Below are positions 55-61,905 of a DNA stretch of 64,000 bases, in pieces. Positions within the stretch are counted from its first letter, which is position 1; each line of letters begins with the position of its first letter. The notes below the pieces were generated by a model that saw only the letters and a list, made by a program, of their open reading frames with translations, was not told the origin of the DNA and did not search any database. This DNA comes from Escherichia coli (GTDB lineage: Bacteria > Pseudomonadota > Gammaproteobacteria > Enterobacterales > Enterobacteriaceae). The stretch lies in NCBI RefSeq assembly GCF_003334335.1, contig NZ_QOWQ01000005.1. One strand, given 5' to 3'. Position numbers and translations under genes: made by a program.

Positions 55-155
55 GCCTGATGCGCTACGCTTATCAGGCCTACGAAAATCTTGCAATGTA
101 TTGAATTTTCATGATTTTGTAGGCCGGATAAGGCGTTCACGCCGCATCCGGCAAG
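55..155. repeat. REP/BIME-type palindromic elements (two inverted REP units)
   Basis: gcctgatgcgctacgcttatcaggcctac and gtaggccggataaggcgttcacgccgcatccggcaag, typical E. coli REP consensus in opposite orientations. Confidence 0.6.
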
Positions 156-10220: not shown

Positions 10221-10315
10221 TAGCCGATGAGGACGCGCCTGATGGGTGTTCTGGCTACCTGACCTGTCCATTGTGGAAGGTCTTACATTCTCGCTGATTT
10301 CAGGAGCTATTGATT
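10221..10315 (+). promoter_or_regulatory. ibpA 5' UTR, candidate ROSE-like RNA thermometer
   Basis: About 95-nt leader between heat-shock promoter and start codon; thermometer assigned from established ibpA biology, structure not folded here. Confidence 0.45.
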
Positions 10316-10729
10316 ATGCGTAACTTTGATTTATCCCCGCTTTACCGTTCTGCTATTGGATTTGACCGTTTGTTTAACCACTTAGAAAACAACCAGAGCC
10401 AGAGTAATGGCGGCTACCCTCCGTATAACGTTGAACTGGTAGACGAAAACCATTACCGCATTGCTATCGCTGTGGCTGGTTTTGCTGAGAGCGAACTGGA
10501 AATTACCGCCCAGGATAATCTGCTGGTGGTGAAAGGTGCTCACGCCGACGAACAAAAAGAGCGCACCTATCTGTACCAGGGCATCGCTGAACGCAACTTT
10601 GAACGCAAATTCCAGTTAGCTGAGAACATTCATGTTCGTGGTGCTAACCTGGTAAATGGTTTGCTGTATATCGATCTCGAACGCGTGATTCCGGAAGCGA
10701 AAAAACCGCGCCGTATCGAAATCAACTAA
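10316..10729 (+). CDS. ibpA: Small heat shock protein IbpA
   Basis: [17 protein letters not shown]..., alpha-crystallin domain, 137 aa. Confidence 0.95.
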
Positions 10730-23816: not shown

Positions 23817-23990
23817 TATCACGGATGCTTTTATAAAAATAATTAGAATAAGTCACTACGCATTCCCATAAATGCGGGAGAGGAATCTATCACATTGATG
23901 AATGTTAGCCAGATATACGCCAGGAATGGGGAATTGTTTAGCGGCAGAATATGTAAACAAAAGCGGCAATAAATGTTGCCGGGAGAGATG

Positions 23991-24028
23991 GTAGGGCGGA
24001 TAAGATGCGTCAGCATCGCATCCGACAC
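23991..24028. repeat. REP-like palindromic element
   Basis: ggtagggcggataagatgcgtcagcatcgcatccgacac. Confidence 0.4.
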
Positions 24029-24044
24029 CAACCCGCACGCTAAA

Positions 24045-24077
24045 TATAAAAGGGGAGCGGTTTCCCGCTCCCCTTTG
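24045..24077 (-). terminator. Rho-independent terminator of tisAB
   Basis: ggggagcgg/ccgctcccc stem; on the minus strand it is followed by a U-rich tract directly downstream of tisB. Confidence 0.5.
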
Positions 24078-24095
24078 GTGCGACTTGAATCTGAA

Positions 24096-24185
24096 TTACT
24101 TCAGGTATTTCAGAACAGCATCAAGCAGTTGCAGTGCTGCAACAATGAGTTTGAGGATAAGAATGGCGATATCCACCAGGTTCAT
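24096..24185 (-). CDS. tisB: Type I toxin TisB (29 aa membrane peptide)
   Basis: Minus-strand ORF MNLVDIAILILKLIVAALQLLDAVLKYLK, matching recalled TisB; below the 60-aa cutoff of the ORF track. Confidence 0.9.
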   Translation of the reverse strand: MNLVDIAILILKLIVAALQLLDAVLKYLK

Positions 24186-24295
24186 ACGCGTCTCCTGTGG
24201 TTCAGGAGCACTGCCAGCTGACGTACCTTTCCGCTGCCTGTTGCCAGCTGTTGTGCACGCGGTATCTCAAGGAGAAACGTTGTGCTTGTTGACAT
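24182..24295 (-). CDS. tisA: tisA leader ORF (37 codons; reported to be poorly or not translated)
   Basis: MSTSTTFLLEIPRAQQLATGSGKVRQLAVLLNHRRRV; stop overlaps tisB start (ATGA). Confidence 0.5.
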   Translation of the reverse strand: MSTSTTFLLEIPRAQQLATGSGKVRQLAVLLNHRRRV

Positions 24296-24419
24296 AACAC
24301 AGTGTGCTCACGCGGGGTTAAGGCGCTGACGGCACCACCCGTTTCAGCCAGGACTTAGTGCGCCGGGTAACGATGCGGCCCCCGCATAACACATTGCGTA
24401 CAGTGATATTATAGAAGTT

Positions 24420-24439
24420 TACTGTATAAATAAACAGTA
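24420..24439. promoter_or_regulatory. LexA box (SOS operator) of tisAB / istR-2
   Basis: TACTGTATAAATAAACAGTA, a near-perfect CTGT-N8-ACAG SOS box. Confidence 0.8.
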
Positions 24440-24545
24440 ATATTTGGACAAAACGCAAACTGTGATCGATACTCAACTATGCACTAAATACGTCAAAATT
24501 CGTGCCGAAATTGCGCGTTCTGCGCGGAACACGTATACTTTCAGT

Positions 24546-24620
24546 GTTGACATAATACAGTGTGCTTTGCGGTTACCAGCCGCAGGCGACTGACGAAACC
24601 TCGCTCCGGCGGGGTTTTTT
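24546..24620 (+). ncRNA. istR: IstR-1 antitoxin small RNA (longer IstR-2 isoform would start near 24481)
   Basis: About 75 nt ending in terminator ctcgctccggcggggtttttt; 5' region gttgacataatacagtgtgct nearly identical to plus strand 24288-24308, so complementary to the tisAB mRNA leader; candidate -10 tatact about 24534. Confidence 0.75.
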
Positions 24621-24749
24621 GTTATCTGCAATTCAGTACAAAACGTGATCAACCCCTCAATTTTCCCTTGCTGAAAAATTTTCCATTGTCTCCCCTGTAA
24701 AGCTGTGCTTGTATAAATATTGTTAAACACAAAACCAACAAGGTCCCCA

Positions 24750-24848
24750 ATGACTACTTCCATGCTCAACGCAAAACTACTACCAACTGCGCCATCCGCC
24801 GCAGTGGTCGTCGTGCGTGTGGTGGTGGTCGTCGGCAATGCGCCGTAG
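24750..24848 (+). CDS. ivbL: ilvBN operon leader peptide
   Basis: MTTSMLNAKLLPTAPSAAVVVVRVVVVVGNAP, Val/Leu-rich leader; 32 codons. Confidence 0.9.
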   Translation: MTTSMLNAKLLPTAPSAAVVVVRVVVVVGNAP

Positions 24849-24873
24849 GGACTGGAACAACACACGATTCCAA

Positions 24874-24953: not shown

Positions 24954-26642
24954 ATGGCAAGTTCGGGCACAACATCGACGCGTAAGCGCTTTACCGGCGC
25001 AGAATTTATCGTTCATTTCCTGGAACAGCAGGGCATTAAGATTGTGACAGGCATTCCGGGCGGTTCTATCCTGCCTGTTTACGATGCCTTAAGCCAAAGC
25101 ACGCAAATCCGCCATATTCTGGCCCGTCATGAACAGGGCGCGGGCTTTATCGCTCAGGGAATGGCGCGCACCGACGGTAAACCGGCGGTCTGTATGGCCT
25201 GTAGCGGACCGGGTGCGACTAACCTGGTGACCGCCATTGCCGATGCGCGGCTGGACTCCATCCCGCTGATTTGCATCACTGGTCAGGTTCCCGCCTCGAT
25301 GATCGGCACCGACGCCTTCCAGGAAGTGGACACCTACGGCATCTCTATCCCCATCACCAAACACAACTATCTGGTCAGACATATCGAAGAACTCCCGCAG
25401 GTCATGAGCGATGCCTTCCGCATTGCGCAATCAGGCCGCCCAGGCCCGGTGTGGATAGACATTCCTAAGGATGTGCAAACGGCAGTTTTTGAGATTGAAA
25501 CACAGCCCGCTATGGCAGAAAAAGCCGCCGCCCCCGCCTTTAGCGAAGAAAGCATTCGTGACGCAGCGGCGATGATTAACGCTGCCAAACGCCCGGTGCT
25601 TTATCTGGGCGGCGGTGTGATCAATGCGCCCGCACGGGTGCGTGAACTGGCGGAGAAAGCGCAACTGCCTACCACCATGACTTTAATGGCGCTGGGCATG
25701 TTGCCAAAAGCGCATCCGTTGTCGCTGGGTATGCTGGGGATGCACGGCGTGCGCAGCACCAACTATATTTTGCAGGAGGCGGATTTGTTGATAGTGCTCG
25801 GTGCGCGTTTTGATGACCGGGCGGTTGGCAAAACCGAGCAGTTCTGTCCGAATGCCAAAATCATTCATGTCGATATCGACCGTGCAGAGCTGGGTAAAAT
25901 CAAGCAGCCGCACGTGGCGATTCAGGCGGATGTTGATGACGTGCTGGCGCAGTTGATCCCGCTGGTGGAAGCGCAACCGCGTGCAGAGTGGCACCAGTTG
26001 GTAGCGGATTTGCAGCGTGAGTTTCCGTGTCCAATCCCGAAAGCGTGCGATCCGTTAAGCCATTACGGCCTGATCAACGCCGTTGCCGCCTGTGTCGATG
26101 ACAATGCAATTATCACCACCGACGTTGGTCAGCATCAGATGTGGACCGCGCAAGCTTATCCGCTCAATCGCCCACGCCAGTGGCTGACCTCCGGTGGGCT
26201 GGGCACGATGGGTTTTGGCCTGCCTGCGGCGATTGGCGCTGCGCTGGCGAACCCGGATCGCAAAGTGTTGTGTTTCTCCGGCGACGGCAGCCTGATGATG
26301 AATATTCAGGAGATGGCGACCGCCAGTGAAAATCAGCTGGATGTCAAAATCATTCTGATGAACAACGAAGCGCTGGGGCTGGTGCATCAGCAACAGAGTC
26401 TGTTCTACGAGCAAGGCGTTTTTGCCGCCACCTATCCGGGCAAAATCAACTTTATGCAGATTGCCGCCGGATTCGGCCTCGAAACCTGTGATTTGAATAA
26501 CGAAGCCGATCCGCAGGCTTCATTGCAGGAAATCATCAATCGCCCTGGCCCGGCGCTGATCCATGTGCGCATTGATGCCGAAGAAAAAGTTTACCCGATG
26601 GTGCCGCCAGGTGCGGCGAATACTGAAATGGTGGGGGAATAA
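24954..26642 (+). CDS. ilvB: Acetolactate synthase I large subunit
   Basis: 562 aa ThDP enzyme; follows ivbL attenuator. Confidence 0.95.
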   Translation: MASSGTTSTRKRFTGAEFIVHFLEQQGIKIVTGIPGGSILPVYDALSQSTQIRHILARHEQGAGFIAQGMARTDGKPAVCMACSGPGATNLVTAIADARLDSIPLICITGQVPASMIGTDAFQEVDTYGISIPITKHNYLVRHIEELPQVMSDAFRIAQSGRPGPVWIDIPKDVQTAVFEIETQPAMAEKAAAPAFSEESIRDAAAMINAAKRPVLYLGGGVINAPARVRELAEKAQLPTTMTLMALGMLPKAHPLSLGMLGMHGVRSTNYILQEADLLIVLGARFDDRAVGKTEQFCPNAKIIHVDIDRAELGKIKQPHVAIQADVDDVLAQLIPLVEAQPRAEWHQLVADLQREFPCPIPKACDPLSHYGLINAVAACVDDNAIITTDVGQHQMWTAQAYPLNRPRQWLTSGGLGTMGFGLPAAIGAALANPDRKVLCFSGDGSLMMNIQEMATASENQLDVKIILMNNEALGLVHQQQSLFYEQGVFAATYPGKINFMQIAAGFGLETCDLNNEADPQASLQEIINRPGPALIHVRIDAEEKVYPMVPPGAANTEMVGE

Positions 26643-41421: not shown

Positions 41422-41516
41422 TGGCGGAAGATCACAGGAGTCGAACCTGCCCGGGACCGCTGGCGGCCCCAACTGGATTTGAAGTCCAGCCGCCTCACCG
41501 GAGACGACGATCTTCC
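41422..41516 (-). tRNA. selC: tRNA-Sec (selenocysteine, anticodon UCA)
   Basis: Reverse complement matches the 95-nt tRNA-Sec GGAAGATCGTCGTCTCCGGTGAGGCGGCTGGACTTCAAATCCAGTTGGGGCCGCCAGCGGTCCCGGGCAGGTTCGACTCCTGTGATCTTCCGCCA, with long extra arm. Confidence 0.95.
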
Positions 41517-58861: not shown

Positions 58862-59152
58862 GGTTCTCTCCCTAAAAATCTGTCTGGCAGGGTAGCGATT
58901 TGTGCGTATTGTCACGATTGAGATTTTTTAAGGTGAGAGGAAATTGATAACTTGTAGTTATGTGAAATCGCTATTTTCTGTAGCGTAGATGCATTCTTCT
59001 GACTTCTTGTCTGAGAAAATGCATAAGAAAAAATAGGTTAAAATTGAGGGGTGGAAAAGAAAGGTGCAATGTTTAGCCATTGTGTTCACCGCACCTGGAC
59101 TTTGGCTTACGCATCGGGTATCTCAATCAACAAAAAGAGTTTTTAGTTTCTG

Positions 59153-59977
59153 CTATTTCTTCTCTGTAATTTTTACACTGTTTTCCAACTGCTTGATGCT
59201 GACCTGCGGGGTCGGCAACTCCTCAGGCATGGTTCCGCCAAGTTCCTGAATGGTTTGCATCACCTTGCTACCCACGTCAAAGTGTGTGGTATTAGCTTGC
59301 TGTTTTGAATTCACGCCATCCCGCTTGAGTTTTTCTTCTGTTTGGGTAGCTCGAAAGAGATTAGCCGCCAGTTCTGTTGAACCCATATGATCCAGGATCT
59401 TCTGATTCTTTTTCAGCCCCTTCCGCTGATGAATAGCTTTCTGATCTAATCCACCATACAGCCCCTGGTAACCATGATTCTGAAATATGGCGAAATCAGT
59501 AGCTGTCGCTACCCCAGCTTGCTGTGCTGCCTCAACCAATTGTTTGTTATGTTCTTTCAACTCATTTCTCAGAAACAGACGCTTTTCGTCTTCACGAAGT
59601 TGCTTAAATGCTTCATCGTCAGCAAGCTCCTGCCGTCGGGTCTGGATAGCAAAATAAGTCTGCCCTGCCGCAATGACCGGTTTCGCAGGGTCGCCGTTTT
59701 GTACTACCAGGTAACAGGCATAGCGGGAGAGTACGATGTCTTTTAATGCTCTTTTGGCATTTGAGCCAATTTTGACCATATCGAGGATCTCCTCGAAATG
59801 GTCATCAATTGTGTGACCACTGTTCTCACAGGCTTCTTTGGCGCGCGTTAATACAGGTATAAAGTGACGATACTCTGAATAACCCAGTAGTTTCCCAAGT
59901 TGTCTTGCTGACCATTGTTCTGCTCCGTTTGCATTAATCAGTTTTATCTCTTCAAAAGGTTGATGATGTTCGTTCAT
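59153..59977 (-). CDS. dinD: DNA damage-inducible protein D
   Basis: 274 aa from MNEHHQPFE; LexA box immediately upstream. Confidence 0.85.
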   Translation of the reverse strand: MNEHHQPFEEIKLINANGAEQWSARQLGKLLGYSEYRHFIPVLTRAKEACENSGHTIDDHFEEILDMVKIGSNAKRALKDIVLSRYACYLVVQNGDPAKPVIAAGQTYFAIQTRRQELADDEAFKQLREDEKRLFLRNELKEHNKQLVEAAQQAGVATATDFAIFQNHGYQGLYGGLDQKAIHQRKGLKKNQKILDHMGSTELAANLFRATQTEEKLKRDGVNSKQQANTTHFDVGSKVMQTIQELGGTMPEELPTPQVSIKQLENSVKITEKK

Positions 59978-60020
59978 TGCCCACTCCATGTGATATCAAT
60001 TGCAAAGAAAGTAAATCTGT

Positions 60021-60040
60021 AACTGTATTTATATACAGTT
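60021..60040. promoter_or_regulatory. LexA box upstream of dinD
   Basis: AACTGTATTTATATACAGTT, CTGT-N8-ACAG about 45 bp upstream of dinD start. Confidence 0.7.
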
Positions 60041-60132
60041 GTGAGTATCTCACGTTCTCAGTGTGCTGGGCAAAAAAACATCGCAAAATCTGGAGCAGGC
60101 ACGAAAAACAGAATTGAAAGTTGCGGGGAAGA

Positions 60133-60166
60133 AAAATGCCGCTCTGTTTGAGTGGGCGGCATTTGT
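60133..60166 (-). terminator. Terminator downstream of yicC
   Basis: atgccgc...gcggcat hairpin followed by T-run on the minus strand. Confidence 0.5.
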
Positions 60167-60198
60167 GAAGGCTGAAAAGTAAGAATTGGCGTTACGAG

Positions 60199-61062
60199 TT
60201 ATTCAATATTCTGAATCTGCTCGCGCATCTGCTCAATCAACACTTTCAGCTCAATCGCGGAGTTTGTCACTTCGGCATTGATAGACTTCGACGCAAGAGT
60301 GTTCGACTCGCGGTTGAACTCCTGCATCATAAAGTCCAGACGACGACCAACGGCTTCTTTTTTCTTCAGAATGTTGTAGGTCTCTTTGACATGCGCTTCG
60401 AGGCGGTCCAGTTCTTCGGCAACGTCAATTCGTTGTGCCAGCAGAACCAACTCCTGCTCCAGACGGTTGTTTTCCAACTGAACCTGAGCATCTTCCAGCT
60501 TCGCGACCAAGCGTTCACGCTGCCATTGCAGGATTTCCGGCATATGGGAGCGGACTTTGACCACTTCGGCGGTGACGCCTTCCAGACGCTGCTCGATCAA
60601 TGCTTTCAGTGCCTGACCTTCGGTTTCGCGCGCGACAATAAAGTCGTCCAGCGTACCATCCAGCGCCGCGAGAATTTCAGCGGCAATGGCGTCAAGATCC
60701 TGCTCCTGGGCTGCCATCACGCCCGGCCAGCGTAGAATATCAACCGGGTTGATTTCCCCTTCGTCACTCTGCATTTTTACCCAGTTCGCGGCAGTTACCA
60801 GCTGTTTAGCCAGTTTTTCGTTGAGGATCAGCTCACCTTGCGCGCTAACATCTGGCTCATAGCGCAGGGTACATTCCACTTTACCGCGCGTCAGGCGAGA
60901 ACGAATACGCTCGCGAACGACAGGTTCAAGGCTACGGAACTGCTCCGGCAGACGAAAGTAAGTTTCCAGATAACGCTGGTTTACCGAGCGCATTTCCCAG
61001 GTTGCGCTCCCCCATTCACCCTTGATTTCACGCCGGGCGTAGGCGGTCATACTGCGGATCAT
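60199..61062 (-). CDS. yicC: YicC-family stress-induced protein (RNase adaptor)
   Basis: 287 aa YicC N- and C-terminal domains. Confidence 0.9.
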   Translation of the reverse strand: MIRSMTAYARREIKGEWGSATWEMRSVNQRYLETYFRLPEQFRSLEPVVRERIRSRLTRGKVECTLRYEPDVSAQGELILNEKLAKQLVTAANWVKMQSDEGEINPVDILRWPGVMAAQEQDLDAIAAEILAALDGTLDDFIVARETEGQALKALIEQRLEGVTAEVVKVRSHMPEILQWQRERLVAKLEDAQVQLENNRLEQELVLLAQRIDVAEELDRLEAHVKETYNILKKKEAVGRRLDFMMQEFNRESNTLASKSINAEVTNSAIELKVLIEQMREQIQNIE

Positions 61063-61188
61063 AGACGTTCCTGTTTATAAAAGGAGAGGTGGAAGGATTA
61101 TAGCCATCGATGCCTTGTCAGGATAGGAATAACCGCCGGAAGTCCGTATAATGCGCAGCCACATTTGTTTCAAGCCGGAGATTTCAAT

Positions 61189-61905
61189 ATGCGTCCAGCA
61201 GGCCGTAGCAATAATCAGGTGCGTCCCGTTACCCTGACTCGTAACTATACAAAACATGCAGAAGGCTCGGTGCTGGTCGAATTTGGCGATACCAAAGTGT
61301 TGTGTACCGCCTCTATTGAAGAAGGCGTGCCGCGCTTCCTGAAAGGTCAGGGCCAGGGCTGGATCACCGCAGAGTACGGCATGCTGCCACGTTCTACCCA
61401 CACCCGTAACGCTCGTGAAGCGGCGAAAGGTAAGCAGGGTGGACGCACAATGGAAATCCAGCGTCTGATCGCCCGTGCGCTTCGCGCGGCAGTAGATTTG
61501 AAAGCGCTGGGTGAGTTCACCATTACGCTGGACTGCGACGTGCTTCAGGCTGATGGTGGCACGCGTACCGCTTCGATTACGGGTGCCTGTGTGGCGCTGG
61601 CAGATGCGCTACAGAAGCTGGTGGAAAACGGCAAGCTGAAAACCAACCCGATGAAAGGGATGGTAGCCGCGGTTTCTGTCGGGATTGTGAACGGCGAAGC
61701 GGTTTGCGATCTGGAATACGTTGAAGACTCTGCCGCAGAGACCGACATGAACGTAGTGATGACCGAAGACGGGCGCATCATTGAAGTGCAGGGGACGGCA
61801 GAAGGCGAGCCGTTCACCCATGAAGAGCTACTCACCTTGTTGGCGCTGGCCCGAGGGGGAATCGAATCCATTGTAGCGACGCAGAAGGCGGCGCTGGCAA
61901 ACTGA
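61189..61905 (+). CDS. rph: Ribonuclease PH, apparently full length (238 aa)
   Basis: Start at [14 protein letters not shown]; ORF runs to ...[11 protein letters not shown]-stop, with no sign of the K-12 rph-1 frameshift. Confidence 0.9.

Follow-up and report, generated by a model that had tools for sequence, protein, structure and literature searches.

The window analysed here, a 64,000-nt stretch of Escherichia coli DNA, carries at 24045–24620 what is almost certainly the tisAB/istR locus of this species, whose tisB and istR-1 genes form a chromosomal type I toxin-antitoxin module; its features are collected in Table 1. The module is flanked by emrD and ivbL-ilvBN, and its identification rests on three independent tests, namely the Rfam istR model, the NCBIfam TisB models, and identity to K-12 MG1655. 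The 29-codon minus-strand ORF that a sequence-only reading of this DNA had placed at 24096–24185 is present and passes both NCBIfam TisB models, aligning over residues 1–29/29 with equivalogs NF011340 (69.6 bits; cutoff 53) and TIGR04459 (59.9 bits; cutoff 38). On the opposite strand, the Rfam model RF01400 (istR) matches 24491–24620 (+) at 150.1 bits (gathering 45, E = 3.7e-31) over model positions 1–130/130. The interval 23900–24800 is 100% identical over 901 nt to K-12 MG1655 and to many other complete E. coli genomes, and the RefSeq annotation of MG1655 and other E. coli at the matching position gives emrD, ysdE, tisB, and ivbL-ilvBN. The sequence-only reading recovered a complete type I module that lies below normal ORF cutoffs; the elements that it listed were all present, at or a few bases from where it had put them.

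Table 1. Features of the tisAB/istR locus, in positions of the 64,000-nt window
Feature	Position	Strand	Basis or remark
tisB, 29-aa hydrophobic toxin, MNLVDIAILILKLIVAALQLLDAVLKYLK	24096–24185	-	29-codon ORF, NCBIfam match, RefSeq tisB annotation
tisB Shine-Dalgarno AGGAG	24192–24196	-	read from sequence; predicted sequestered in structure
tisA, 37-codon ORF in the tisB 5' UTR	24182–24295	-	overlaps tisB by ATGA
IstR-1 target, standby region of tisB mRNA	24287–24309	-	direct repeat with the IstR-1 5' end; standby role from PMC6690012
5' structured element of processed (+42) tisB mRNA	~24310–24360	-	conservation; +42 coordinate counted from ~24401
tisAB transcription start	~24401	-	placed 7 nt downstream of the -10
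tisAB promoter -10, TATAAT	24413–24408	-	sequence; listed as tisAB -10 in PMC11264685
LexA box TACTGTATAAATAAACAGTA	24420–24439	.	2 mismatches to the 20-nt consensus
IstR-2 promoter, TGGACA-17 nt-GATACT	24445–24473	+	promoter scan; hexamers given for IstR-2 in PMC11264685
IstR-2, SOS-induced long form, ~140 nt	24481–24620	+	Rfam istR over 24491–24620; 5' end placed from promoter position
IstR-1 promoter, TTGCGC-17 nt-TATACT, internal to istR-2	24511–24539	+	sequence; hexamers listed in PMC11264685
IstR-1, antitoxin sRNA, ~75 nt	24546–24620	+	5' end placed from -10 position and published length
tisAB intrinsic terminator, stem 24076–24049 then T-rich tail	24037–24076	-	12-bp stem, 8 G-C pairs, 4-nt loop

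The sequence-only reading had taken the locus for the known TisB/IstR-1 module and not for a new system, and both NCBIfam models, Rfam istR, and the 100% identity to MG1655 agree with it; the short ORF and the sRNA region alike found their tisB/istR matches in the database searches. The tisB/istR-1 locus of this window is an already known system. Short ORFs and palindromes do arise by chance, and this general risk is all that speaks for a chance or decayed look-alike, in which a short hydrophobic ORF and a palindrome would merely resemble tisB/istR; a locus 100% identical to the characterised one of MG1655, with profile HMM and covariance-model scores far over threshold and 0 chance matches expected for either the LexA box or the IstR pattern, leaves no room for that explanation.

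Work on the tisB/istR-1 system goes back to 2004, and its ribosome-standby mechanism is the best characterised of its kind; the K-12 system was reportedly the subject of work by Vogel et al. in 2004 and Darfeuille et al. in 2007. It was also the subject of Romilly et al. in 2019 (PMC6690012). Compared with K-12, the locus is identical throughout 23900–24800, as is its emrD-ilvB context; the TisB peptide (including the K-12-type Asn2), the promoters, the LexA box, the standby site, and IstR-1/IstR-2 are all the same, with no difference inside the locus. The parts computed here are the identity of these elements, their pairing, the predicted sequestration of the ribosome-binding site (RBS), and the cross-genus architecture, and the literature on the identical sequence supplies LexA control, processing, standby, RNase III cleavage, toxicity, and persistence. 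The identity of the locus does not extend to the window as a whole, and the idea that the window is literally K-12 MG1655 was rejected because of SNPs in ilvB/uhpA (two against MG1655 in the 5.9 kb compared, at 25824 and 27248) and because of 98.5% identity with 4 gap positions over 58862–61866 (dinD-yicC-rph).

Several other features of the window were recorded in passing. In the dinD region, a second LexA-box-like palindrome, AACTGTATTTATATACAGTT, lies at 60021–60040 (+) and differs from the consensus at 3 positions. It is 44 nt upstream of the start codon of dinD (59156–59977, -), whose protein is 99.3% identical to K-12 DinD; this palindrome looks like the dinD SOS operator. An Rfam ROSE_2 RNA thermometer matches at full length at 10250–10322 (+; 100.4 bits) and, by its position in E. 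coli, is presumably the ibpA 5' UTR. A selenocysteine tRNA (Rfam tRNA-Sec, 83.8 bits) is found at 41426–41516 (-), and selC in E. coli is a known integration hotspot for genomic islands. Rfam ES036 (CssrF), an sRNA family, matches at 76–118 (-) with 44.8 bits (gathering 37.6). Nearer to the module, the Val/Leu-rich attenuator ORF ivbL, the ilvB operon leader peptide MTTSMLNAKLLPTAPSAAVVVVRVVVVVGNAP, occupies 24751–24849 (+), starting ~130 nt downstream of the istR terminator.

The tisB and sRNA genes are divergent and do not overlap, and in the intergenic region between them the LexA box stands at the tisAB promoter, 6 nt upstream of its -10 and ~5–6 nt before the -35 of the IstR-2 promoter. 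This box had been claimed between the divergent transcripts and was found there; in the minus-strand 5'-to-3' reading of the locus it is TACTGTTTATTTATACAGTA, and the number of matches expected by chance, from 100 dinucleotide-preserving shuffles of the whole window, is 0. In the literature, the box has a heterology index of 1.81, and LexA control of tisAB is documented (PMC5668327). The hexamers of all three promoters are those tabulated for MG1655 (PMC11264685). Across 13 aligned loci of the comparison described below, the IstR-1 promoter hexamers retain 88% and 96% mean identity and the ATACT of the IstR-2 -10 is invariant. The transcription starts at 24401, 24481, and 24546 were inferred from the promoter hexamers, not mapped, and give the minus-strand transcript a leader of ~215 nt upstream of tisB. 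The tisAB terminator is a perfect inverted repeat with 90% mean identity across the 13 aligned loci, and the small-RNA gene is closed on the plus strand by a stem at 24595–24618 followed by a T-run, in keeping with the strong terminator that had been expected at about 24598–24620.

TisB is strongly hydrophobic (GRAVY +1.62), and its toxicity, membrane depolarisation, and role in persister formation have been reported (PMC2826370, PMC8145889). The tisB RBS AGGAGA is 100% conserved in E. coli (PMC11264685). In RNA folding, the Shine-Dalgarno is unpaired with a mean probability of 0.05 in the +1 form of the mRNA, 0.01 in the +42 form, and 0.06 in the +106 form; the RBS is thus predicted to be buried in stable structure in all three forms, from which a need for ribosome standby would follow.

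The small RNA on the plus strand has two forms that share one terminator. IstR-1 consists of a 5' single-stranded antisense tail (24546–24567), an internal hairpin, and the terminator hairpin with its U-run, and its minimum-free-energy (MFE) fold leaves nt 1–12 unpaired ahead of two hairpins. It is reported to be constitutive (PMC5668327, PMC11264685), whereas IstR-2 is reported to be made only in the SOS response and not to repress tisB translation (PMC11264685). The sequence-only reading had described a divergent sRNA at the LexA box and an SOS-controlled module. The sRNA is there, but the RNA adjoining the box is IstR-2, not the antitoxin IstR-1; likewise, SOS control applies to the toxin mRNA and to IstR-2 and does not include the antitoxin, because IstR-1 is transcribed from a promoter of its own and, reportedly, constitutively. 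One may ask in turn whether IstR-2, rather than IstR-1, is the functional regulator, being SOS-induced and either buffering TisB during the SOS response or acting on separate trans targets. Its promoter abuts the LexA box and has a -10 that is nearly invariant across 13 loci, and the whole IstR-1 sequence is contained in it; against this, the predicted fold of IstR-2 has its antisense stretch partly masked by the 5' extension, no transcribed segment is less conserved than the 5' part specific to IstR-2 (20% invariant columns, 65% identity), and, according to the literature, tisB translation is not repressed by IstR-2 (PMC11264685), so that this reading is very improbable. A narrower proposal, that IstR-2 has an SOS-specific, TisB-independent function, such as other trans targets or titration of late-SOS tisB mRNA, was considered because its promoter is kept in 13/13 aligned loci from six named genera despite the lack of tisB repression; it would seem unlikely, if somewhat less so. 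IstR-1 stays the antitoxin in what follows.

The link between IstR-1 and the toxin mRNA is a direct repeat. A repeat of about 21/23 had been claimed between the 5' part of the sRNA and the tisAB leader; the repeat is real, although at 24288–24310 versus 24546–24568 it amounts to 20/23, and it is only after a shift of one base, to 24287–24308 versus 24545–24566, that the best ungapped core of 21/22 is obtained. No other site within 3 substitutions of the repeat occurs in the 64-kb window. In the duplex prediction that had been proposed as a check, IstR-1 nt 1–22 (24546–24567) form 22 contiguous pairs with leader positions 24309–24288, of which 20 are Watson-Crick and 2 are G.U, and the complementarity is given in the literature as 21 nt (PMC4147584). 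The best IstR-1/tisAB duplex has an energy of -78 kcal/mol versus -53 ± 4 for shuffled IstR-1, a z-score of -6 that rests on mononucleotide shuffles, a weaker null than dinucleotide shuffles. An extended homology between istR and the tisAB leader, as from an ancient duplication, was considered behind a predicted 70-nt interaction and rejected, the alignment being weak beyond the 22-nt core. Only one other word is shared, between the leader and the istR terminator (GCTCACGCGGGGTT versus GCTCCGGCGGGGTT, 12/14) and was treated as a G+C-rich chance pairing.

With the inferred +1 at 24401, the IstR-1 target spans ~+93 to +115, and its 3' edge lies 91 nt upstream of the tisB Shine-Dalgarno (24196), that is, away from the RBS. 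This start is supported by the published +106 RNase III product, which then falls at 24296, inside the duplex. In published work, the +1 form is inert, and a single-stranded standby site for S1 and the 30S subunit, ~100 nt upstream of the RBS, becomes exposed when the 5' end is processed to +42; IstR-1 pairing at this site prevents standby binding and provokes cleavage by RNase III, which leaves the inert +106 form (PMC6690012). In the MFE fold of the +1 form, the 5' end pairs with the target region, and target accessibility shows a modest rise from 0.39 to 0.48 between the +1 and +42 forms, so that in silico folding gives no sharp version of the published structural switch. The leader block at ~24310–24360 corresponds by position to the 5' stem-loop required for S1/30S standby binding (PMC6690012).

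The distribution of the module beyond E. coli was followed with a degenerate 38-nt pattern that was derived from the conserved positions of the Rfam istR consensus and run on one genome per bacterial species. The pattern has one match in the window (0 expected) and yielded 14 loci in species-level genomes from six named genera, 13 of them in genomes other than E. coli. The hosts are Salmonella enterica arizonae and diarizonae, seven Citrobacter, Franconibacter, Siccibacter, and Pseudenterobacter, together with two further Enterobacteriaceae and the divergent E. coli E69. Counts of the full architecture use the 12 of 14 genomes with at least 560 nt of upstream flank, and in 12/12 of these a 29-aa TisB, a near-identical target, a LexA box, and all three promoters are present. 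Their TisB orthologues, each of 29 aa, share 18–28/29 residues with the one here and keep the core LKL-V---QLLDAVLK invariant, and the target lies 247–258 nt upstream of the IstR-1 start. Among the 14 other genomes, CTGT-N8-ACAG is found in 13, the LexA box being degenerate in RIT714. Where the flank is shorter, part of the locus is visible: in S. enterica arizonae (313 nt), the target and LexA box are seen and the tisB position is beyond the available sequence, and in C. amalonaticus (171 nt), the LexA box alone is seen. In every flank long enough to show the neighbouring genes, these are emrD and ilvB, and, judged by this constancy across genera, the tisB/istR module is old and vertically inherited.

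Conservation within the locus is concentrated where the two RNAs meet. The IstR-1 target is the most conserved segment, with 87% invariant columns over 13 loci; the IstR-1 antisense tail has 82%, the leader block at ~24310–24360 has 77%, the tisB coding sequence has 53%, and the IstR-2-specific 5' part has 20%. The cross-species duplex is 96.5% paired, versus at most 50.5% in slid registers; since the IstR side was selected by the search pattern, only the target side counts here as an independent observation. A single pair shows a compensatory change, U-A to C-G, and at the same pair two Citrobacter genomes have an A.C mismatch. The covariation statistic is weak, with 15/500 shuffles scoring at least as high as the observed duplex, because hardly any of its positions vary; on the aligned loci, then, cross-species support for the duplex is a matter of conservation, not of covariation.

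The leader ORF calls for a separate assessment. A 37-codon ORF preceding tisB had been claimed, and both the ORF and the overlap of its TGA with the tisB ATG (ATGA, 24185–24182) are borne out, but it does not hold up as a conserved leader peptide, the AUG being lost in 7/12 related genomes. The tisA AUG (24295–24293; +107 with +1 at 24401) falls within the IstR-1 duplex, which agrees with the earlier statement that the sRNA is antisense to the leader around the tisA start. No Shine-Dalgarno is found upstream of this AUG, where the sequence is CCGCGTGAGCACACTGTGTT, and the NCBIfam search with tisA gave no match. In the 7 genomes concerned the AUG is ACG, and a 34-nt block inside tisA (24253–24286) is missing in 8/12; the four genomes that keep an ORF at the tisA position have 26–46 codons of unrelated sequence, with TisB staying at 29 aa, and in the divergent E. 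coli E69 the frame there is another one, of 27 aa. As for the 34-nt leader segment itself, Escherichia, S. enterica diarizonae, and two Citrobacter have it and 8 other species lack it; the standby site and the tisB AUG are accordingly ~126–128 nt apart in one group and 91–94 nt apart in the other.

These observations bear on a coupling of the hok/mok kind, by which tisA would be translated, termination at the ATGA would deliver ribosomes to tisB, and IstR-1 would act by blocking tisA translation. The overlap is real, the tisA AUG does lie in the IstR-1 duplex, and more than 99% of E. coli with the locus keep the 37-aa ORF, its "biological implications unknown" (PMC11264685). Such coupling was nevertheless rejected as exceedingly improbable, because tisA is not conserved, has no Shine-Dalgarno, and has no family match, its start and 34 nt of its length each being absent from more than half of the related genomes and its surviving counterparts unrelated; the literature, moreover, reports no evidence of tisA translation and a standby mechanism in its place (PMC11264685, PMC6690012). 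Membership of the hok/mok type was examined as well, and tisA is not the conserved, translated leader needed for toxin translation in that type. As a reading frame tisA exists, but it probably does not serve as a functional coding sequence, and its loss across genera suggests that its conservation above 99% within E. coli reflects constraint at the RNA level and shallow divergence, not selection on a peptide.

Within E. coli, at least 80% of 24045–24620 is present in 4151/5426 complete genomes, at 95–100% identity and always on the chromosome, and ~23% of the 5426 are without the cassette but have its flanks. In strain AVS0750, window positions 23983–24631 (649 nt, comprising a REP-like element, tisAB, and istR) are replaced by 116 nt of unrelated sequence. 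The REP-like palindromic element (…GGATAAGATGCGTCAGCATCGCATCC…) lies at ~23985–24040, just downstream of the tisAB terminator, and probably explains the median of 2 matches per genome for the 901-nt query. Between emrD and tisB, a 24-codon ORF, MNVSQIYARNGELFSGRICKQKRQ, at 23898–23972 (+) corresponds to the RefSeq E. coli 'protein YsdE'; it is retained in strains without the tisB/istR cassette, and the NCBIfam search with it gave no match.

Taken together with the literature (PMC6690012, PMC4147584, PMC5668327, PMC2826370, PMC11264685), the arrangement would operate as follows. In the unstressed cell, LexA at 24420–24439 would repress both the tisAB promoter (-) and the divergent istR-2 promoter, with IstR-1 made constitutively from its own promoter. 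Upon DNA damage, LexA would be removed and tisAB mRNA would accumulate, initially as a primary transcript that could not be translated because its RBS is buried and its 5' end is paired with the upstream standby region. Loss of ~41 nt from the 5' end would expose a single-stranded standby site ~90–100 nt upstream of the RBS, where a 30S subunit could wait via protein S1 before sliding to the RBS. The 5' tail of IstR-1, by pairing over ~22 bp with the standby site, would block standby binding and lead to RNase III cleavage to the inert +106 form. Once tisB mRNA exceeds IstR-1, the 29-aa TisB would insert into the inner membrane and collapse the proton-motive force and ATP, and dormant, antibiotic-tolerant cells would result. 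Nothing in the sequence contradicts this tisB/istR-1 explanation.

Among related systems, dinQ/agrB, another LexA-controlled type I toxin-antitoxin pair of E. coli, is alike in its divergent, non-overlapping toxin and sRNA genes, its LexA-repressed toxin promoter, its inert primary mRNA activated by 5' processing, and its constitutive antitoxin (PMC5668327); unlike tisB/istR-1, it has another toxin family and another sRNA, and it is absent from the window. The zorO/orzO pair of E. coli O157 likewise combines a 29-aa toxin with a divergent antisense RNA of the trans type, whose pairing site is in the 5' UTR, and a standby-like element has been proposed for it (PMC6690012, PMC11264685); however, it is not under LexA control, it has no sequence relationship to tisB/istR-1, and its region of base pairing varies, whereas that of tisB/istR-1 is nearly invariant. 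The hok/sok system of plasmid R1, with its mok leader, resembles tisB/istR-1 in encoding a small membrane toxin together with an antisense RNA and in having an overlapping ORF upstream, but mok is translated and is the antisense target, whereas tisA is not conserved and is reported to be untranslated (PMC11264685).

Two of the present results go slightly beyond existing annotation, namely the delimitation of the absence allele (23983–24631 versus 116 nt in AVS0750) and the cross-genus loss of tisA, the latter bearing on the remark quoted above that its biological implications are unknown (PMC11264685). The tisB/istR-1 module to which they belong is biologically important in that it contributes to ciprofloxacin-induced persisters.
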